Shown here piece after piece: positions 4,299 to 32,274 of a DNA stretch of 64,000 nt. Under the pieces are notes generated by a model. It was not told where the DNA came from, did no database searches, and saw nothing but the letters and a program-made list of their open reading frames with translations. This DNA comes from an uncultured Actinomycetota bacterium (GTDB lineage: Bacteria; Actinomycetota; Actinomycetes; JAHEKZ01), in NCBI GenBank assembly GCA_963743915.1, contig CAVURN010000001.1, positions 160,001-224,000 of the forward strand. The letters run 5' to 3'. The position numbers were made by a program, and so were the translations under genes. How positions within the stretch are numbered: position 1 is the first letter of the stretch; each line of letters begins with the position of its first letter.

Positions 4299-5895
4299 AT
4301 GGCTCAGCGCTACGACGCCGTCGTCATCGGTGGTGGCCACAACGGCCTCGTCGCGGCGGCGTACCTGGCCAAGTACGGCAAGCGCGTGGTGGTTCTCGAG
4401 AAGCGGCACAAGACCGGCGGTGCGGCGGACACCAGCCAGCCGTGGCCCGAGGCGCCGGAGTTCAAGGTGACGACGCTGTCGTACACGATGAGCCTGATGC
4501 CGGAGTACATCCTCAAGGACCTCCAGCTCGCCCGGTTCGGGTACAAGATCAACCCGCTCGGGCTCGGATACACGCCGCTGTCCGACGGCCGCTCGCTGCA
4601 TCAGCGACGGCCCGAACATGTACGACTCGTACGCGGCGTTCTCCAAGAAGGACGCCGACGCGCACGACCCGTACTTCGAGTGGATCGGGCGCATCGCGGG
4701 CATCCTGCACCCGCTGCTCGACCGCACGCCGCCCGCACATGGGGTCGAAGAAGCTCGGCGACATCAAGGACCTCGGGATGCTCGCCTGGATGCTCCGCAA
4801 GGAGATCGACGAGCGCACGGTCGCCGACATCACCCGGCTCTTCACGATGAGCGCGGCCGACCTGCTCACCCGCTGGTTCGAGCACCCGGTGATCCTGGGC
4901 TCGCAGGCCGTCAACGGCATCATCGGCACCTGGGCCGGCCCGATGAGCCCCGGTACCGCCTACGTGCTCATGCACCACTCCGTCGGCGACGAGGCCGGCG
5001 GCAAGGTGTCGTCCTGGGGACAGCCGGTCGGAGGGATGGGTGCCGTCGCGGACGCCTGCCGCGCTGCCGCCGAGTCGTTCGGTGCCGAGGTTCGCGTGAA
5101 CGCCGGCGTCTCGCAGGTCACGGTGTCGAACGGCCGGGCCACCGGAGTGGTGCTCGAGGACGGTGAGGAGATCACCGCCGACCTCGTCGTCACGACGTGC
5201 CACCCGCAGATCACCTTCCTGAACCAGATCGACCGGCACCACCTGCCCGACGAGTTCGTCCACGACATCGAGAACTGGCGATCGCGGTCCGGCACGGTGA
5301 AGATCAACCTCGCGCTGGACCGGCTGCCCGAGTTCACCGCCGAACCCGGGCTTCGACCCGGACATCCACGGTGGCGCCATCAGCATCATGGACGACCTCG
5401 AGTACCTCGAGACCGCGTTCCAGGAGGCGAGGTCGGGCAAGGCCGCCACGCTGCCGTTCTCCGACCGCGAGATCCCGACGGTCTACGACAAGACACTCGC
5501 ACCCGAGGGCAAGCACATCATGTCGATGTTCACCCAATGGGTGCCCGAGTCGTGGAGCCAGGAGCGCAACCAGGACGAGCTGAACGCGTACGCGCAGCGG
5601 CTGTACGACCGGTTCGACGCGGTCGCGCCCGGGCTTCAAGGACTCGATCCTGCACGAGCAGGTCATCGGCCCGTGGGAGATGGAGCACGACTTCGGGCTG
5701 ATCGGCGGCAACATCTTCCACGGCGAGCTCACCGTCGACCAGCTCTTCCACATGCGACCCGCGGTCGGCTACGCCGACTACCGGACGCCGATCCACGGGC
5801 TGTACCAGGCGTCCAGCGCGACCCACGCCGGCGGAGGCGTCACGGGGATGCCGGCCCACCACTGCGTCCGTGAGATCAGGCGCGACAAGGCCTGA
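4299..5895 (+). CDS. Phytoene dehydrogenase-like FAD-dependent oxidoreductase (COG1233-type), frameshifted
   Basis: YDAVVIGGGHNGLVAAAYLA, TAYVLMHH, GGMGAV, GGNIFHGEL, YRTPIHGLY, THAGGGVTG in successive frames. Confidence 0.88.
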
Positions 5896-5920
5896 GCGCA
5901 CCGTAGCCGCCCACGGGTGG

Positions 5921-8593
5921 TCAGCCCGTGCGCTCCGCTCCGGTCGAGTGCTCGCGCGAGACCACCTCGAGAGGGGACACCGAGCTTTCGGTAGACCCGA
6001 CTCAGGTGGAACTCGACGGTCTTGACGCTGAGGAAGAGGGAAGCCGCCACCTCGGCGTTCGACATGCCGTCGACCACGGCCATGGCCACGCGAAGCTCCT
6101 GGGGGGTCAGCTGGCGCGCAGGCTGATGGGTAGCCGTGGGCGGGCGTTGTCCGGTGGCGCCCAGCTCCCTCCGTGCCCGTTCCGACCAGGGTGGAACACC
6201 GATCCGCTCGAACGCTTCGAGTGCCGCGCGGAGCGACTCCCTGGCGTCACGGACACGCCGGGTGCGACGAAGGTGCTCACCGTGCAGCAGCAAGGTGCGG
6301 GCCGCCTCGAACGGGTCATCTGTCTGCTCGTGGCTGTGCCAGGGCCTCGCGGTAGTGGTCGTCTGCGTCGTCGGGACGGGTCAGCGCGAAGCATCGCTGC
6401 ACCAGTGCCAGGCCGTGCGGGTCGATGATCCCGTCCAACCGCTGCGCCAGGCGATCTGCTACGTCCCGGGCCTGTCGACGAGACCGAGGGCCACCAGCGC
6501 CTCGGTGAGGTCCGCGGAGGCACCCGTGACCGCATCACGGCACCCACGGCCGAGGAAGGGAGAGGACACCACTCGCTGAAGCGGGACGATGGCCGGCTCG
6601 ACGTGACCCAGGGTCAGGGCGAGTGCACCACGTGCTTGATCTGCCCACGCCATCCGCTTCACTGAGGGGTCGGCCCGAACTGTGCTCCGCGGACGCGACC
6701 AGGCTTCTCGGTTCGCTGCTGACCTCGCCACGGTAGGAGGTGACAGCAGCCGCCAGGCTGACCTCGGAGACGGAAGGAGGGCAACTGCATCGCGCGGTCG
6801 AGATCGATGGCCTCAGTGAACAGTGACTCCGCTCGCTGCCAGTGTCCGTCGCGTCGCGCGTGCTCTGCGGAGAAGAAGGCCGCTGATGCGGTGAGAGCGG
6901 GTCGACCGCTGGCACGGAACCGCCGGGCCATGTACGCCATCCGCGCTGCGGAGATCCGAAACGTCCTTGCCGAGCCAGCCGGGGATCATCGCCCACAGCA
7001 GCAGCGGTTCACCGGCGAGAAGCTCAGGGTCGACGTCTGCGCTGAGCGCAACAGGCCTTGTTCAGCAGCGCGACCCCACGATCGTGGCGTCCCACGAAGG
7101 TGTAGGCCATCCCGAGAGCGGCCACCAGGTCCCATCGCGCGTTTGCATCGGGAGACGTCGAGCTCCTCGCCGAGCTGATCGAGTCGTGCGACGTCTGCAG
7201 CCGACATGGCAGTCCAGATGCGATTGACGTCGAGGCGCACCCTCAAGTTCCTCGTCCAGCGCAGCCAAAGGAAGGTCGGACAGCACAGTGTCGAGCTCGT
7301 CAGGGCCGACGCCGCGTGGTCCTTCGAGCCTGACGAGAACGGCCCTTGCTCGCAGGACGGGGTCACTGGTGCTTCCGTGACGCGGCCGGCGAGCTCCTCC
7401 ATGTGAGCGGCGTCCGGAGCCAGCTCGGCAGACAGCACCAGCCGGCGTAGACGGTCATGACGAGCAGGAGACAGGTCCGCGGCGCGCTCTGCCATGGTTG
7501 CGCCCTCGAGGCTGAGGCCCTGATCCGCCAGTCTCGCGGCCTCCCGCTCGAGCGCGGAGGCGAGATCCTCGTCGGGTCCTGTGCTCGCCTCGGCCAGGTG
7601 CCGAAGGCTTCGTTGGGGCTCACCGCGTGACGCGAACAGCTGCCCGAGGACGAGATGTGCGCTTCGACGCTCGGCGTGGGTCGCAGCGGCGTGAACCGCA
7701 GCCCGAGCCAACGGGTGGACGAATCGGGGCTCCGGTCCGAGCGTCAAGAGTCCATGACGCTCGGCGACCTCGAGGTCGGAGACGGAGACCCCGGCCGAGA
7801 CCCAGGCCTGATGGACCGCACTCGGGTCGCCGGAGTCGTCGGCCGCCATGAGGACGAGCCCGACGCGGGTGAGCGCCGGCAGCGCGTCGAAGCCGTGCGC
7901 GTACCGCTCCTGTACGGCCTGGCCGACGGGTATCGGTGAGGGCGGGACCTGGGACCCTCGAAGGACCTCCTCGGGCAGCAGGGACGGTGGCCTCGACCAG
8001 AGCCAGAGGAAGGCCACCGAGCGAGCGCACGATCTGCCGTCCAGCTCGGTCGGTCACCTCCGGGGTCACCGAACGGAGAAGTGCGAGTGCGTCGTCATCG
8101 GCGAGCGCCGGGATGTCGAGGCATGGCAGGTGGGCAAGAGGCTCGCTCCGGCCGATCTCGGGTCGTCCAGCCAGCACGATCGCCACTGGATCGGCGAGTA
8201 GGCGACGCGTGGCGAACACCAGGGCGCGGAGCGAGGGTCCGTCGAGCCACTGAACGTCGTCCACCGTCACGAGCAGCGGTTGTTCGGCACCGAGCCGACA
8301 CGAGAGCCTCGAGGACCTCGCCGGGCTCGGGACTCGGTCGAAGGTGGCATGTTCCTCCAGGTGCCCGAGCAGGAGGCCTGCGACGGCACCTGGCAGTCGG
8401 GACTCCACTTCCAACGCGGTCACCTGGGCCACGTGAAAGCCTCTGGGTGCGCCAGGCTTGCGACGGCTTCGATCAGAGCGGTCTTGCCGATCCCTGGTTC
8501 CCCCACGAGGCGGAGCACCGCGGACCTGCCTGCTTGGGCCTCGTCGAGCAGTGCAACGAGATGATCCAGCTCCACGTCCCGGCCGACCAGCAC
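5921..8593 (-). CDS. Large LuxR-family transcriptional regulator with N-terminal AAA ATPase (LAL-type), heavily frameshifted
   Basis: LVGRDVE...GEPGIGKT Walker A, VDDVQWLD Walker B, RFVHPL, C-terminal LTPQE...SNAEVAASLFLSVKTVEFHLSRVYRKLGV HTH; 3' end approximate. Confidence 0.85.
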
Positions 8594-24009: not shown

Positions 24010-24402
24010 ATGGCGAAGCTGAGCACCGATGAACTGCTCGACGCGTTCAAGGAGATGACCTTGATCGAGCTGAGCGAGTTCGTGAAGCAGTTCGAGGAGA
24101 CCTTCGAGGTCACCGCCGCCGCCCCCGTCGCCGTCGCTGCCGCGCCGGCCGCCGGTGGCGCAGCCGCCGGTGGCGAGGCAGCCGCCGAGCAGGACGAGTT
24201 CGACGTCGTCCTCGAGGCAGCTGGTGACAAGAAGATCCAGGTCATCAAGGAGGTGCGGACGCTCACCAGCCTGGGCCTGAAGGAGGCCAAGGACCTGGTG
24301 GAGAGCACCCCCAAGCCGGTCCTGGAGAAGGTCACCAAGGAGGCCGCCGACAAGGCCAAGGAGGCCCTCGAGGGCGCCGGCGCCACGGTCACCCTCAAGT
24401 AG
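24010..24402 (+). CDS. rplL: 50S ribosomal protein L7/L12
   Basis: [37 protein letters not shown]. Confidence 0.98.
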
Positions 24403-24415
24403 GACCCGAGCTCGA

Positions 24416-24451
24416 CGAACGGCCCGCCTCCGCGAGGAGGCGGGCCGTTCG
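24416..24451. terminator. Bidirectional terminator after rplL
   Basis: CGAACGGCCCGCCTCC-GCGA-GGAGGCGGGCCGTTCG perfect 16-bp stem. Confidence 0.8.
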
Positions 24452-24461
24452 GTTGTCTGCG

Positions 24462-24824
24462 TCAGTCGTCATCGTCGTCGCCCGGACCGTCGTCATCGTC
24501 GTCGCCCGGACCGTCGTCATCGGCACCGTCGTCACCACCGGCCGTCCCGCCGGTCGCGCCCCCACCGCCGCCGGTCGCGCCCCCACCGCCGCCGGTCCCG
24601 CCATCCCTGTCGTCCTTGTCGGCACCGGGATCGTCACCCTTCTTGTCCCGGTCGTTCTTGCCGTCTCCGCCTTGGCGGTCCTCGTCATCCTTGCGATCCT
24701 CCTCAGGGACGTCGACCGAGATCGTCTCGACGGTCGTGGTGGGTGGTTCACCCGTGAGCAGCTCGACGCCGACGAAGGTCGTGACCGCCAGGACTCCCGC
24801 GACCATCAGAGCTCGCCACACCAT
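24462..24824 (-). CDS. Small exported or membrane-anchored Asp/Gly-rich low-complexity protein
   Basis: RBS AGAGAGGAG, hydrophobic N-terminus, then GGGGAT and GPGDDDDD repeats. Confidence 0.7.
   Translation of the reverse strand: MVWRALMVAGVLAVTTFVGVELLTGEPPTTTVETISVDVPEEDRKDDEDRQGGDGKNDRDKKGDDPGADKDDRDGGTGGGGGATGGGGGATGGTAGGDDGADDDGPGDDDDDGPGDDDDD
24465..24597. repeat. Intragenic tandem repeats: 24-bp unit x2.4 (24465-24522) and 21-bp unit x2.4 (24547-24597)
   Basis: gtcgtcatcgtcgtcgcccggacc and ccgccggtcgcgcccccaccg units read directly. Confidence 0.8.
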
Positions 24825-24849
24825 GGAGTTCTCCTCTCTGCCGGGGCTG

Positions 24850-25515
24850 TCATGGCGCTACCTCGAGTCGGTAGCCCATGCCACGCACGGTGCTGATCAC
24901 GTCTGCCCCCAGCTTCCGACGCAGGTACCGCACGTAGACGTCGACCACGTTCGACTCGGGTGCGAAGTCGTAGCCCCACACGTGGCTGAGCAGCTGCTCG
25001 CGGCTGAGCACCTGACCCGGGTGTCGCATGAGCGTCTCGGTCAGCGCGAACTCGCGTGCGGTGAGCTCGACCGTCCGACCTCTGACGGATGCGCGTCGGG
25101 TGCGCAGGTCGAGAATCACCTCGCCCACCCTCAGGACGGTCATCTCGGCGGTCGGTTCCGTGCGCAGACGAGCCCGTACGCGGGCCAGTAGCTCGTCGAA
25201 CCGAAAGGGTTTGGTGACGTAGTCGTCGGCGCCACCCTCGAAGCCCGCGACGGTCTCCTCGACGGTGTCGCGTGCTGTCAGGATCACCACGGGGATCGTC
25301 TCGCCGCGTTCCCGGAGGCGGCGCAGCACCACCTGGCCGTCCATCTCCGGAAGACCCAGGTCGAGGATCATGAGGTCGAAGTCGTCCACCCGGGCCATCT
25401 CCAGGGCCTGCGTACCGGTTGTCACGACCTGGGTGGTGAAGCCGTTGGCGCGCAGACCACGCTCGAGAAACGAGGTGATCCTCTCCTCGTCCTCGGCGAT
25501 CAGGATGCGCGTCAT
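24850..25515 (-). CDS. OmpR/PhoB family response regulator
   Basis: ILIAEDE, ILDLGLP, GADDYVTKPF, LTAREF, SNVVDVYVRYLRRKL, TVRGMGY. Confidence 0.95.
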   Translation of the reverse strand: MTRILIAEDEERITSFLERGLRANGFTTQVVTTGTQALEMARVDDFDLMILDLGLPEMDGQVVLRRLRERGETIPVVILTARDTVEETVAGFEGGADDYVTKPFRFDELLARVRARLRTEPTAEMTVLRVGEVILDLRTRRASVRGRTVELTAREFALTETLMRHPGQVLSREQLLSHVWGYDFAPESNVVDVYVRYLRRKLGADVISTVRGMGYRLEVAP

Positions 25516-27017
25516 GACGTCACCTCCTGGGGCAGCTCGCGGGTCGCGTCGAGGCTGATGTCCTCGGGGACAGGTTCAGGTTCGCCGGCGGGGCGGACGG
25601 GAACGATGAGCGTGAAGCGCGCGCCCTGTCCGGGTCGGCTGTCGATCCGGACCCGCCCGCCGTGTGCGCGAGCGATCGCGCTGACGATCGCCAGGCCCAG
25701 CCCGGTCCCCTCGCGACCGGGTGCCCGGGTGTCGCGACCCCGACCGAAGCGCTCGAAGATGTGCTCCTGCTCGTCGAGGGGGATCCCAGGGCCGTCATCG
25801 CGAACCCAGAGGCGCGCCTCCTCGTCGACGACCGCGCTGCCGATGGCGATCAGGCCCCCTGGGCGGGTGTGCTGGACGGCGTTGGTCACCAGGTTCAGCC
25901 AGGCCTGAGTGAGACGCTCGGGGTCCGCCTCGATCACCGCATGGGAGACGTCGTCCACCTGACAGGTGCGGTCGGGGGCGAAGGACTCCGCACGAGACCG
26001 CATGCCGTCTGTGAGCTCGGTGAGGTCGACCGGTCCGATCCGGAGGAAGTCTGGCTTCTCGGCCTTGGCCAGCAGGATGAGCTCGGTGACGTAGCGATTC
26101 ATCCGGTCCAGCTCGTCGAGACAGAGGGCGAGCGTCTGCTCGCGTTCGACAGGGTCGTTCGGCAAGAGCTCGAGGTTGCCGCGGACGATGGTCAGGGGCG
26201 TGCGCAGCTCATGGCCGATGTCGTCGAGGAAACGACGTTGATCGGCGAACGCGTCCTCCAAGCGGTCCAGCATCGTGTTGAACGTTCGCGTGAGCTCGGC
26301 CACCTCGTCGTTCCCGGTGACGGGGATGCGTTCGGAGAGGTGCGAGTCGGAGATGTTCCGGGCCGTGGAGGTGAGACGCCGGATCGGGGCGACGACGCTG
26401 CCGACCGTCAGCCATCCGACGACCGACACGACGAGCATCATCACGCCGCTGATCAGTGCCATCAACCGCACCGCCTGGTTGATCTCGTCGAGCTCCGGTG
26501 CGAGGAAGTGCGTGGCGATGAAGGTGCCGGCAACTCGGTCCCGCTCGGTCAGGGGAACGGCGAGCCAACGCACGGGACCCGCCTGGGTGTCGATCTCACC
26601 GAACGCCGGCTCGGTCAGGGCCGCCCACTCGGCCACGAGCTCGGGCTGGTCGAGCAAATCGATCGGCGCGCCGCGGTCGGAGCCGTAGGGCTGCCCGTCG
26701 ACGAGGAAGAAGGATCCTTCGGTCGCCTCCGGGACATCCCCGGCGATGAAGTCGTCGAACATGGCCGGAAGGTCGGCTCCGTACGACTCCCCGGTCCGAG
26801 GGTTCGTTCCACCCGCGAACAGGGCCAGCTCGTCCGCCTCCTGGGTGAGGCTGGCATTGACCGACTCCTCCAGGCCGACCATCAGGAACTGTCGCAACGC
26901 CAGGACTGCCACAACCAGGGAGATCGCCAGCAACCCCAGGTACCAGAGCACCACCCGGGCGCGCAGGCCCGCAAAGCGGGAGGACAGGGCCGACGTCATG
27001 GTGTCAGCATCCGGCAC
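25512..27017 (-). CDS. HAMP-domain sensor histidine kinase
   Basis: Two TM helices, HAMP, HELRTPL H-box, NLVTNA, DDGPGI, GTGLGL; start approximate. Confidence 0.94.
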   Translation of the reverse strand: MPDADTMTSALSSRFAGLRARVVLWYLGLLAISLVVAVLALRQFLMVGLEESVNASLTQEADELALFAGGTNPRTGESYGADLPAMFDDFIAGDVPEATEGSFFLVDGQPYGSDRGAPIDLLDQPELVAEWAALTEPAFGEIDTQAGPVRWLAVPLTERDRVAGTFIATHFLAPELDEINQAVRLMALISGVMMLVVSVVGWLTVGSVVAPIRRLTSTARNISDSHLSERIPVTGNDEVAELTRTFNTMLDRLEDAFADQRRFLDDIGHELRTPLTIVRGNLELLPNDPVEREQTLALCLDELDRMNRYVTELILLAKAEKPDFLRIGPVDLTELTDGMRSRAESFAPDRTCQVDDVSHAVIEADPERLTQAWLNLVTNAVQHTRPGGLIAIGSAVVDEEARLWVRDDGPGIPLDEQEHIFERFGRGRDTRAPGREGTGLGLAIVSAIARAHGGRVRIDSRPGQGARFTLIVPVRPAGEPEPVPEDISLDATRELPQEVTS

Positions 27018-27033
27018 CTGGGCTCCGATCTCG

Positions 27034-27096
27034 ATGAGAGCGCCATGAGGGATCTCTCATGAAAGCACTCTCACGGGGAACTCACGAATCCTTCAG
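27034..27096. promoter_or_regulatory. Tandem 11-bp-period direct repeats (candidate OmpR-family boxes) on both strands
   Basis: ATGAGAG 27034 / ATGAGGG 27045; CTCTCAC 27068 / AACTCAC 27079 / CCTTCAG 27090; also CTCTCAT 27054. Confidence 0.6.
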
Positions 27097-27166
27097 GGCC
27101 GGCCGTGACGGTGGGAGGACGAACGGCACGCACCCTGCGGGCCGACGAACACCCCAAGGAGAAGTC

Positions 27167-27565
27167 ATGGGACGCATCTACCGGGCTCTGATCGCCGCCT
27201 TCGCGGTGCTCTTCGGCCTCGGCCTCGCACTGACGTCGGCGTCGGCCGCCAGCGCCGGTGAGGACGCCAAGCGCGAGGACGACGTCCGCGAGGTCGCCAC
27301 CGTCGAGTACGACGATGACGACGACGACAGCAACACGGGCAACACCAGTGTTGGTAGCCGGACCGGCAGCAACACCGTCAACAGCAACGACCGTTCCGGT
27401 GACAGCAACGACGGGACCAACAGCCGCAAGACGGGCGTGAGCCGCGACAAGGACCGCAGTCGCGGCGACCTGACCAAGGACTGGACGCGGGACGGTGCCG
27501 GTGACCGCACGCGCGACTGGTCGCAGAACCGCACCAACGACAAGTCCCGCAACGACACCCGCTGA
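27167..27565 (+). CDS. Secreted Asp/Arg/Ser/Thr/Asn-rich low-complexity protein
   Basis: RBS AAGGAG, signal peptide ending ASA, poly-Asp, C-terminal xDx[ST] tetrapeptide periodicity. Confidence 0.8.
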   Translation: MGRIYRALIAAFAVLFGLGLALTSASAASAGEDAKREDDVREVATVEYDDDDDDSNTGNTSVGSRTGSNTVNSNDRSGDSNDGTNSRKTGVSRDKDRSRGDLTKDWTRDGAGDRTRDWSQNRTNDKSRNDTR

Positions 27566-27585
27566 CGGGCTGAGGACGGTTGACC

Positions 27586-28467
27586 ATGGGAAGCTCATGG
27601 CTCGTGGGTGCCGGGGACGAGGTCGTCCCCGGCATCCGGGCCGAGCGCAAGCTCGGCGGTGGGGAGCGGTATGAGGCCTACCTCGGCTGGCACGAGCGGA
27701 TGTTCGCGCCCGTCGTCGTCAAGGTCGTGCGTCCGGACCTGGTGGACGACTCGGCGACGATGCGCGGCCTCCGGCGTGAGGTCGAGATGCTGCAGCGCCT
27801 GTCACACCCGGTGATCGTCCGCTCCTTCGACGCCGATCTTGAGGGGGAGCGACCGCACGTCGTCCTCGAGCATCTGGACGGCCCTCGGCTCTCCTCGCTG
27901 CTGCGCCGGTTCGGCCCACTGTCGATGGAGCAGCTGCTGCCTCTGGGACTCGAGCTGTGCTCGGCTCTCCACTACCTGTCCACCGAGCGGGTCGTCCACC
28001 TCGACGTCAAGCCGAGCAACATCATCATGGGGGCGCCGCCTCGGCTGATCGACCTCAGCATCGCGCGGTCGCTGGACGCAGCCGCCCGGCTCGACCATGT
28101 GACGGGAACCGACGCCTACCTCGCGCCGGAGCAGGCGGACCCGCCCCGCAGCGGCCGCCCCGGATCTCCTGCAGACATCTTCGGGCTGGGGGTGACCTTG
28201 TACGAGGGGCTCACGGGTGAGCGACCCTTCCGAAAGGGTTCACGCCACAAGGCCGCAGCCCCCGAGGACACCTGGCCCCAGCTGGTCGAGGCACCAGCAC
28301 CCCTGCCGGGGGACATCCCGGAGTTCGTGGCCTCCCCGATCCTCGCCTGCCTGGACCCCGAACCCTCGGGCCGACCGACCGCCGCCGAGCTGGCCGACCG
28401 ACTCCAGCCGCTGGTCGAGGCCCTGCCCCGACCCGTCCTGGGCGGGCTCCGGGCCAAGCTGCGCTGA
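27586..28467 (+). CDS. Soluble Hanks-type Ser/Thr protein kinase (non-RD, DLS instead of DFG)
   Basis: LGGG, VVVK, REVEML, HLDVKPSN, IDLSIA, GTDAYLAPEQ, DIFGLG; no TM segment. Confidence 0.9.
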   Translation: MGSSWLVGAGDEVVPGIRAERKLGGGERYEAYLGWHERMFAPVVVKVVRPDLVDDSATMRGLRREVEMLQRLSHPVIVRSFDADLEGERPHVVLEHLDGPRLSSLLRRFGPLSMEQLLPLGLELCSALHYLSTERVVHLDVKPSNIIMGAPPRLIDLSIARSLDAAARLDHVTGTDAYLAPEQADPPRSGRPGSPADIFGLGVTLYEGLTGERPFRKGSRHKAAAPEDTWPQLVEAPAPLPGDIPEFVASPILACLDPEPSGRPTAAELADRLQPLVEALPRPVLGGLRAKLR

Positions 28468-28522
28468 GCACGTGTCGCCCCGGCCCGCAGGGTGCAAACA
28501 GGTCACAAGAGCCCGGATGTGC

Positions 28523-28639
28523 TTGACGCGCCTGGGGTCTGCCCCGCATAGTCATCGCCAGCGTTTCACCCGCGGGTCCCCCGCAGGTGGCGTCTGAAGG
28601 AGGCGCGACTGGACAGCCGCGGCCGCATGCCGCTACGCT
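28523..28639 (+). promoter_or_regulatory. Two candidate rpoB promoters
   Basis: TTGACG-N18-CATAGT (28523-28552) and TGGACA-N18-TACGCT (28610-28639). Confidence 0.5.
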
Positions 28640-28803
28640 GTCGCTTTGCGCTGCCCTGACCCCTCGTCTGCGTGCCCTGAGCCAAGTCCGCGCGTGCCCG
28701 GAGCCTGCCCGTCCTCCGGTTCGCACCGCGGTGCCCAGCGGCGCGCTCGGCTCCCGGGGTCCGACCGGCCGCGCTGCGGTAGTCGAGCCCGGAAGGACGC
28801 CTC

Positions 28804-32274
<3,471 letters not shown>

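Follow-up and report, generated by a model that had tools for sequence, protein, structure and literature searches.

A predicted exported acidic peptide and a soluble Hanks-type kinase as a dedicated gene pair beside a two-component system in soil actinobacteria

The 64,000-nucleotide (nt) stretch of DNA analysed here, referred to as the window, comes from an uncultured member of the Actinomycetota (contig CAVURN010000001.1, positions 160,001 to 224,000). It carries two adjacent genes on the plus strand, one for an acidic peptide precursor of 132 amino acids (aa) that is predicted from sequence to be exported (27167..27565), and one for a soluble, catalytic-domain-only Hanks-type kinase of 293 aa (27586..28467). 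The peptide and the kinase are a dedicated pair encoded in one operon. The interpretation that we prefer, tentatively and at somewhat less than an even chance, regards this operon as the dedicated output of the adjacent two-component system, within a module of up to five genes in which the peptide and the kinase act as co-expressed arms rather than as substrate and enzyme. The original prediction for this locus concerned the peptide and the kinase; the neighbouring two-component system, a second poly-Asp protein and a shared promoter element are additional to it.

The pairing is documented by a scan of 185,579 species genomes (one per species) for relatives of the peptide, which yielded 203 stretches, of which the best 80 were compared as loci (designated L); related genomes among them are non-independent observations. 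Bit-score thresholds for the histidine kinase, the response regulator and the kinase were set by us. Pairing could be assessed in 78 of the 80 loci, those with at least 1,000 nt of sequence 3' of the peptide gene, and a kinase ortholog was found in 72 of them, in 70 cases on the same strand and 6-252 nt downstream. The corresponding gap in the window is 20 nt, while in L072 and L080 the genes for the regulator and the histidine kinase sit between peptide and kinase.

Reverse tests were conducted in 41 relatives of the window genome, 58 genomes of the family of genome G030 and 121 genomes of a Nocardioides-type family; the tallies over the 41 relatives take in two unpublished genomes, G025 and G033, both of which lack the module. 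Among these relatives, kinase matches at E<1e-100 are confined to G000, G003, G012, G013 and G030, and the peptide is present in G000, G003, G012 and G030, the contig of G013 ending at the kinase. The family of G030 has the kinase in 4 of 58 genomes at five places, with the peptide directly upstream at all five. Of the 121 Nocardioides-type genomes, 35 carry the kinase, 33 carry both genes and none carries the peptide alone; the two genes are adjacent on one contig in 30 of the 33, and in the remaining 3 the kinase starts at a contig end. The two kinase-only genomes comprise one with a kinase cut by the contig end and one in which the upstream peptide has the N-terminus of the family and a different tail. 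The dedicated pairing put forward in the original prediction is thus borne out from both directions (72/78 peptide loci, 33/35 kinase genomes), and the finding that would have spoken against it, kinase homologs usually occurring without the peptide, is contradicted by the same 33/35 genomes and by the 5/5 orthologs in the family of G030.

A two-component system is the second constant of these loci. In the window, a sensor histidine kinase of 501 aa is encoded at 25512..27017 on the minus strand, counted from the GTG at 27017, although the true start may lie a few codons later. It comprises a first transmembrane segment, a sensor domain of ~140 aa, a second transmembrane segment and, identified with Pfam, HAMP, HisKA and HATPase domains. 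It is followed by an OmpR/PhoB-type response regulator of 221 aa (24850..25515, minus strand; Response_reg 4.5e-28, Trans_reg_C 1.9e-28). The best NCBIfam matches of both proteins point to a heavy-metal subfamily while missing its thresholds: the histidine kinase scores 217.8 against a cut-off of 292.55 for TIGR01386, over its cytoplasmic part only, and the regulator 211.6 bits against 279.2 for TIGR01387. Genes for both a histidine kinase and a regulator occur in 62 of the 80 loci; when only the 51 loci with complete 7-kb flanks are counted, the figure is 48. Their layout varies among the 62 loci (53 convergent, 3 divergent as in the window, 4 tandem, and 2 with the system between peptide and kinase), and the gene set is kept despite these differences. 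The sensor domain occurs among the 41 relatives only in G000, G003, G012 and G030, which are the four that hold the peptide, and judged by this distribution it is specific to the module.

The fifth gene encodes a small membrane-anchored acidic protein of 120 aa (24462..24824, minus strand), which lies 26 nt downstream of the regulator gene in the window and has an N-terminal hydrophobic segment followed by a Gly/Asp-rich tail that ends in poly-Asp. No Pfam, NCBIfam or PADLOC match was obtained for it. The protein is encoded downstream of the regulator in G000, G003 and G012, and in 41 of 58 other loci the gene immediately 5' of the histidine kinase gene encodes a poly-Asp protein of this anchored type. 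Being of low complexity, it escaped clustering of open reading frames (ORFs) and was sought with a separate feature detector, which fired in 2 of 510 control windows. Clustering of 890 ORFs from the 80 loci gave the kinase (67 loci), the histidine kinase (55), the regulator (51) and the peptide (49) as the recurrent families; the next families, at no more than 31 loci, reflect local synteny, and no lyase, cyclase, protease or transporter recurred.

A possible link between the two operons is a candidate regulator-binding element in the divergent intergenic region of the window (27045..27085, plus strand), which reads ATGAGG-N4-TCTCAT followed by TCTCAC and CTCAC and lies 82-122 nt before the peptide ATG. 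Its family form, found from words enriched upstream of 64 peptide genes, is ATGAGA-N4-TCTCAT followed by CTCAY-N6-CTCAC, that is, three direct repeats with an 11-bp period. Repeat spacing is 14 + 11 nt in the window and 11 + 11 in most relatives, a first spacing of 14 being found in the genus of G000. A regular expression for the triple repeat matches 54 of the 80 loci, always just upstream of the peptide, and gives four extra matches in 960 kb searched on both strands, three of them before a second peptide copy and one before a histidine-kinase operon. The pattern occurs once in the 2.9-Mb window genome, at 27055, and a position weight matrix (PWM) likewise gives this locus only in G000. Of 57 loci, 37 also have PWM sites in the 1 kb preceding the sensor operon, a count independent of the training of the PWM. 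L072 and L080, in which kinase and peptide are set apart, have a site ~100-150 nt before the kinase gene. OmpR/PhoB-type regulators bind phased direct repeats, and for this reason the regulator of the module would be expected to control the peptide-kinase operon and usually its own operon as well; judging from these sites, the two-component system is probably autoregulated. A second triple repeat was observed between kinase and regulator in L023 (~8324), L026 (~8402) and L037 (8376-8789), and in L037 it is followed by a second peptide paralog.

Metatranscriptome contigs of close relatives (two runs, 90-97% alike) cover the peptide gene, the junction at 27546-27657 and the kinase gene, which lends weak support to the preferred interpretation, with DNA carry-over possible; little of the stretch is represented in these runs, and they do not rank the readings considered below. 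A terminator scan of 24300-28900 returned none. The only sigma-70-like promoter match in that interval is at 28523-28552 (plus strand; TTGACG, 18 nt, CATAGT), ~250 nt upstream of rpoB.

The genes of the module co-evolve as one block, with a Mantel r of 0.91 between kinase and regulator. The co-phylogeny recommended in the original prediction agrees with a joint history of the pair and does not single out the kinase as the partner of the peptide: partial Mantel values for kinase and sensor were 0.30 vs 0.30 and 0.48 vs 0.44, and mirror-tree analysis did not discriminate between them. In five of five relatives that lack the module, rpoB starts ~350-510 nt after rplL, while the gap in the window is 4.4 kb (24403-28803), so the module is an insertion into the rplL-rpoB spacer in the clade of the window. 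No mobility gene is visible in this insert. A quite different gene context is found in L018 (G030), where the module lies beside a heliorhodopsin gene (4840-5667, minus strand; Pfam 1.9e-102) and a beta-carbonic-anhydrase-like gene (5754-6248, plus strand).

The peptide gene is preceded by a ribosome-binding site, AAGGAG (27156..27161, plus strand), read from the sequence 5 nt before the ATG. Its product begins with MGRIYR, a 16-residue hydrophobic core and ASAASA, forming a predicted signal peptide of AxA type (residues 1-27 or 1-30), and continues with GEDAKREDD, which contains the KRED motif (residues 35-38), a short hydrophobic stretch and the poly-Asp run DDDDDD (residues 49-54, 27311-27328, plus strand). 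A variable linker rich in N, T, S and G leads to the conserved C-terminal module (residues 82-132, 27410-27562, plus strand), in which residues 100-131 form eight xDx[ST] tetrads: GDLT KDWT RDGA GDRT RDWS QNRT NDKS RNDT. The register fits at 15 of 16 positions ([DN] at position 2, [ST] at position 4), a score that was reached by none of 100,000 shuffles of these 32 residues and, in any 32-residue window, by none of 5,000 shuffles of the mature peptide. The mature peptide contains no C, H, M, F, I or P. The peptide is as the original prediction described it, with a signal peptide, DDDDDD and tetrads free of Cys and His, while its claim of a strict four-residue register with two Trp holds for the window peptide and not for the family, as shown below.

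The GC content at third codon positions (GC3) of the peptide frame is 0.90, a value that alone does not pick the strand, because an antisense ORF of 126 aa (27178-27558, minus strand) spans the peptide gene and, by frame arithmetic, has the same third positions. The sense strand was chosen on account of the ribosome-binding site, the signal peptide, the direction of the operon and the stop position conserved across the family. The antisense ORF, a similar one of which clustered in 22 of the 80 loci, is taken as a shadow of the sense gene, composition by itself not being decisive.

Structure prediction does not support the beta-solenoid or fibre that the original prediction had drawn from the register, since both available models are of low confidence. 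The AlphaFold2 (AF2) model, built with the 18-sequence alignment, has a mean predicted local distance difference test (pLDDT) score of 53.2, no strand and a helix in the signal peptide only, with residues 29-132 mostly below 50, and the ESM Atlas model reaches a pLDDT of 0.32 and a predicted template-modelling score of 0.08. Look-alikes in the ESM Atlas are limited to unnamed clusters of hypothetical proteins, with structure matches at a template-modelling score of at most 0.35. The mature peptide is accordingly modelled as disordered, and a metal or a binding partner could induce it to fold.

A profile of four orthologs, run against 8,000 scored candidates, gave 874 matches at E<=0.01. The named members, from Nocardioides, Nocardioidaceae, Propionibacteriales and Herbiconiux, are all annotated as hypothetical, and the peptide has no Pfam or NCBIfam match. 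The order of elements is constant in the 18-sequence alignment: signal peptide, K35-R36 with acidic residues, short hydrophobic stretch, poly-Asp, linker and C-terminal module. The n-region and h-region of the signal peptide are kept, its end is mostly AxA and A28 is invariant, while the linker differs in length and sequence. The C-terminal module of ~50 residues runs up to the stop codon with the consensus DGTNSRxTxVSRDRDxSRGDLTRDWTRDG(x)GDRTRDWSxNxTNDRSRNDTR, which holds 12 mostly invariant Ser/Thr in 50 residues. Many homologs are one residue short at DG(x)GD, which breaks the strict register, the second Trp of the tail can be replaced by N, L, R, F or H, and some members have two copies of the module. 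At least seven kinase-linked peptides retain the N-terminal part and have tails of another kind, composed of TxNT repeats, SRDSVD repeats or Gly/Ser/Asn-rich sequence, all still rich in Ser/Thr. All nine variant-tail loci keep the kinase, the histidine kinase and the regulator, and the catalytic motifs of the kinase are intact. No fused form of the module in a longer protein was found at E<=0.001, a search that is itself weak evidence.

The tetrapeptide S-R-G-D (residues 98-101, 27458-27469) is invariant in the four-ortholog alignment and nearly so in the 18-sequence alignment; the host being a soil bacterium, the RGD triplet within it is probably incidental. A paralog type, seen in L039 (8013-8627), L107 (2472-3380, minus strand) and L106, has a signal peptide, KRDD and poly-Asp followed by a Gly/Asn/His/Thr-rich tail of TRTRTG repeats. 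In L039 it adjoins a peptide with two modules, and the kinase is absent.

The kinase matches Pfam PF00069 (Pkinase) over residues 21-272 with 127.2 bits against a cut-off of 31.7 (E 9.8e-37), covering profile positions 3-258 of 263, and Pfam reports no second domain in it. No hydrophobic segment is apparent by eye. Its start is likely the ATG at 27586 rather than the TTG at 27580, because GAGGA lies 8 nt upstream of the ATG and the resulting N-terminus agrees with those of the orthologs. Counted from this ATG, the key residues are K46, H138-L139-D140, N145 and D156-L157-S158, the latter groups lying within HLDVKPSN and LIDLS (DLS in place of DFG). The family is uniform in length, with 64 of 67 members between 289 and 299 aa, and LGGG, VVVK, RGLxRE, HLDxKPSN, RLIDLS and GTDxYxxPEQ are at least 90% conserved in 68 aligned kinases, which preserves the catalytic residues K, E, D, N and D. 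Going by these motifs, the kinase is probably catalytically active. HLD replaces HRD in the window, throughout the family and in all nine variant-tail loci, which agrees with the original description of a catalytic-domain-only, non-RD Hanks kinase, Pkinase being the sole domain.

Within the clade formed by L109, L110, L111 and L115, whose peptides have TxNT tails, the kinase P+1 loop reads GSDEY in place of GTDAY, and VA(L/R)D replaces VARP after DLS; representing one lineage, this gives only a hint of co-variation. Two fused kinase proteins, P0122 (kinase with histidine kinase and response regulator domains) and P0123, have long Arg/Gly/Pro-rich stretches between their parts and were set aside as frameshifted read-through of adjacent genes. 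A further database protein of 730 aa, P0124, joins a kinase of the window subfamily (52% identity, HLDVKPDN, RLIDLS) to an extracytoplasmic function (ECF) sigma factor and a Ser/Gly-rich tail; this single case could be an artefact of read-through, or the same kinase may be wired differently here.

What we infer for the preferred arrangement comprises the export of the peptide, the binding of the regulator, the cue and the task of each arm. The histidine kinase, through its module-specific sensor domain, would sense an envelope cue, for which our guess is the state of the wall zone in terms of cations or charge. Once phosphorylated, the OmpR-type regulator would bind the 11-bp-phased TCTCAT/CTCAY repeats and activate the peptide-kinase operon as well as, in most genomes, the operon that encodes it. 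The peptide would be exported via Sec and cleaved after AxA, giving a disordered and strongly acidic extracellular protein that may bind cations, feed back on the sensor, or both, perhaps together with the anchored poly-Asp protein. The cytoplasmic kinase would relay the same signal by Ser/Thr phosphorylation of further targets, which may include the regulator. Cations or wall charge, as cue, cargo or both, are suggested by the two poly-Asp proteins, the sub-threshold matches to the heavy-metal subfamily and the parallel with CusR drawn below. A complex prediction of sensor domain residues 43-184 (30 rows) with mature peptide residues 31-132 (18 rows) scored 0.00 and 0.00 and counts neither way.

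Several observations weigh against this arrangement. Conservation across the gene set is highest in the C-terminal module (mean distance 0.21) and lowest in the sensor domain (0.55), a poor fit to the C-terminal module as ligand of the sensor; binding to a very conserved partner, such as the cleft of the kinase or the ribosome tunnel, fits better. The 12 conserved Ser/Thr, together with the Ser/Thr-rich variant tails, look like modification sites, and the coupling of peptide and kinase, with its 20-nt gap, is tighter than co-regulation requires. Both heavy-metal cut-offs are missed, and the peptide lacks the ligands His, Met and Cys. The PWM was trained on sites upstream of the peptide, so its recovery there (68 of 75 loci) is partly circular. 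Six of the 78 assessable loci, finally, have the peptide without the kinase: L030, L036 and L068, a small clade with a further small ORF and then a regulator after the peptide, and L025, L039 and L074. Module conservation, the 12 Ser/Thr and the tight gene coupling are the reasons why the idea of a kinase substrate retains appreciable weight and that of a leader peptide some room.

The first of these ideas, that the kinase phosphorylates conserved Ser/Thr of the tail in the cytoplasm, either ahead of Sec export or while it proceeds, is unlikely in our estimate while deserving to be taken seriously, and we judge its proposed outcomes, a secreted poly-acidic phosphoprotein or a precursor that serves as a sentinel of export stress, to be doubtful to the same degree. 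Sites with an acidic residue upstream and a bulky hydrophobic one at +3 are reported to be preferred by mycobacterial kinases, a pattern that D-x-T-x-D-W would fit. The preference of actinobacterial PknA/PknB for Thr (PMC5845002) points the same way. Near-perfect co-occurrence and same-strand adjacency, a C-terminal module that is both the most conserved element and dense in Ser/Thr, the Ser/Thr-rich character of every variant tail and the altered P+1 loop of the TxNT-tail kinases, a single evolutionary event, are further points in its favour. They are countered by a conserved, cleavable Sec-type signal peptide that would place the mature peptide outside and leave the kinase inside, by nine of nine variant-tail loci in which the xDxT module is dispensed with and the kinase intact, by the six loci without the kinase and by partial Mantel values that favour the kinase no more than the sensor. 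If the sentinel form were true, the kinase would meet the tail only when Sec export lags, so that export stress would become a Ser/Thr phosphorylation signal under two-component control. In either form the D-x-T-x-D-W/S array would accept phosphate at several sites, and the secreted form, if true, would give bacteria an equivalent of secreted acidic phosphoproteins.

An autoinducer circuit of the agr or comCDE kind, in which the exported peptide or a fragment of it is sensed by its own histidine kinase and the regulator induces the peptide and a kinase effector, is improbable by comparison. The peptide gene does adjoin a histidine kinase and a regulator, phased repeats lie upstream of both the peptide operon and the sensor operon, and the sensor domain is found only where the peptide occurs. 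A dedicated processing or export gene is, however, absent among the recurrent families of the 80 loci, the tail can be swapped for unrelated repeats, and a peptide module conserved across genera beside a diverged sensor is the reverse of what co-diversifying pheromone-receptor pairs display. We consider very improbable a secretion-monitoring leader peptide after the manner of the arrest peptides SecM, MifM and VemP, whose signal peptide would engage Sec while the last 50 residues or the poly-Asp run stalls or destabilises the ribosome, letting kinase translation report on export or Mg2+. Its architecture alone would suit this role, with a signal peptide, a variable spacer, a conserved stretch up to the stop codon and a kinase start 6-252 nt further on. 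The downstream gene, however, encodes a kinase and not a Sec or YidC component, the module is doubled in some peptides, tails are replaceable and some peptides lack the kinase; moreover, the poly-Asp run comes only after ~48 residues, at a position where ribosome destabilisation is damped. In favour of a leader peptide, nascent chains with negative charge have been reported to make ribosomes unstable (bioRxiv 10.1101/2021.02.02.429294).

Least credible of all, at the edge of what merits discussion, is a precursor with a modifying kinase resembling those of ribosomally synthesised and post-translationally modified peptides (RiPPs), or a phage-defence gene built on a kinase and accompanied by a small partner. 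The kinase does give sub-cut-off matches to LanL (72.8 vs 650 bits) and LanKC (33.8 vs 575), and it matches the PADLOC profiles of the PD-T4-6 and mad6 defence kinases with E of 1e-40 to 3e-44, but such scores are generic for any Hanks domain, Pfam Pkinase itself giving 1e-36. The housekeeping neighbours and the wiring of the module to a two-component system also argue against both forms. The likeness to a RiPP precursor suggested in the original prediction fails on the gene content of the 80 loci, with no recurrent lyase, cyclase, protease or transporter, and on a peptide with a Sec-type signal peptide and without Cys. Membership in class III/IV lanthipeptides was rejected, the kinase being single-domain, the LanL and LanKC scores below cut-off, the partner genes absent and the peptide without Cys.

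Under the preferred interpretation, in which the peptide-kinase operon is the output of the adjacent two-component system, the module is of interest for how bacterial signalling routes are joined. The usual view keeps two-component systems apart from Hanks kinases, as routes with occasional cross-talk, and cross-talk of Ser/Thr kinases with two-component regulators is presented as a general theme in a review (PMC6213207). Here the gene of a soluble Hanks kinase appears to be hard-wired as a target of a two-component system and coupled to a predicted exported, disordered poly-Asp protein. The module is widespread in soil actinobacteria, the named records being mostly from Nocardioides and other Nocardioidaceae and including several cultured strains, and, being compact and having a defined cis element with what appears to be a single target locus in each genome, it lends itself to testing. 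Its study could show how envelope cues reach Ser/Thr phosphorylation and what role disordered acidic proteins play outside actinobacterial cells. Both the peptide family and the anchored acidic protein are new to Pfam and NCBIfam, where no model covers them, and literature searches found no paper on the peptide family or the module, which is no proof of absence.

Some known systems share part of this arrangement. Genes for exported peptides stand beside a histidine kinase and a regulator in agr and comCDE, with repeats upstream of the peptide operon; the window peptide differs from these in its Sec signal peptide, its cross-genus conservation, the lack of a dedicated exporter or processing enzyme and the presence of a kinase in the operon. 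The GlnX-GlnH-PknG system of mycobacteria and corynebacteria combines a soluble Hanks kinase with an exported protein, and an outside signal probably reaches the kinase via a membrane partner. The differences are that PknG contains rubredoxin and TPR domains, that GlnH, a lipoprotein, is folded and binds solutes, and that a two-component system plays no part; no homology to the window module was found beyond the kinase domain. In PrkC-WalR and Stk1-CovR the Hanks kinase is a membrane receptor encoded elsewhere, while here the gene of a soluble kinase is an apparent transcriptional target of the regulator.

Nearest to the module are two systems that couple a secreted protein to two-component signalling, CusRS/PcoRS with PcoE, and HbpS-SenS-SenR; the general theme of cross-talk between Ser/Thr kinases and two-component regulators is near as well. 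His and Met abound in the disordered proteins PcoE and SilE, while the window peptide, Asp-rich and without His, Met or Cys, would suit hard rather than soft cations. Likeness to CusRS/PcoRS/SilRS lies in the regulator and the HAMP histidine kinase, whose best NCBIfam matches fall in this subfamily below threshold, and, with CusRS in particular, in a partly palindromic site in a divergent intergenic region, a tiny apparent regulon and a small secreted protein under apparent control. For E. coli CusR, PMC11195947 describes binding to a palindrome between divergent operons and a very restricted regulon, with control extending to pcoE; by our own comparison, its half-site TGTCAT matches the TCTCAT of the window at 5 of 6 bases. 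Unlike these systems, the window module has two extra direct repeats after the palindrome and a Hanks kinase in the operon, and its histidine-kinase match is limited to the cytoplasmic part. A folded accessory domain is missing from the module. In HbpS-SenS-SenR of Streptomyces, one pathway is made up of a secreted protein, a sensor kinase in the membrane and a regulator in the cytoplasm (PMC4991794), and HbpS is described in PMC3754957 as a folded octamer that binds haem and iron. In contrast to HbpS, the window peptide is modelled as disordered, has no family match and is accompanied by a kinase and a second acidic protein.

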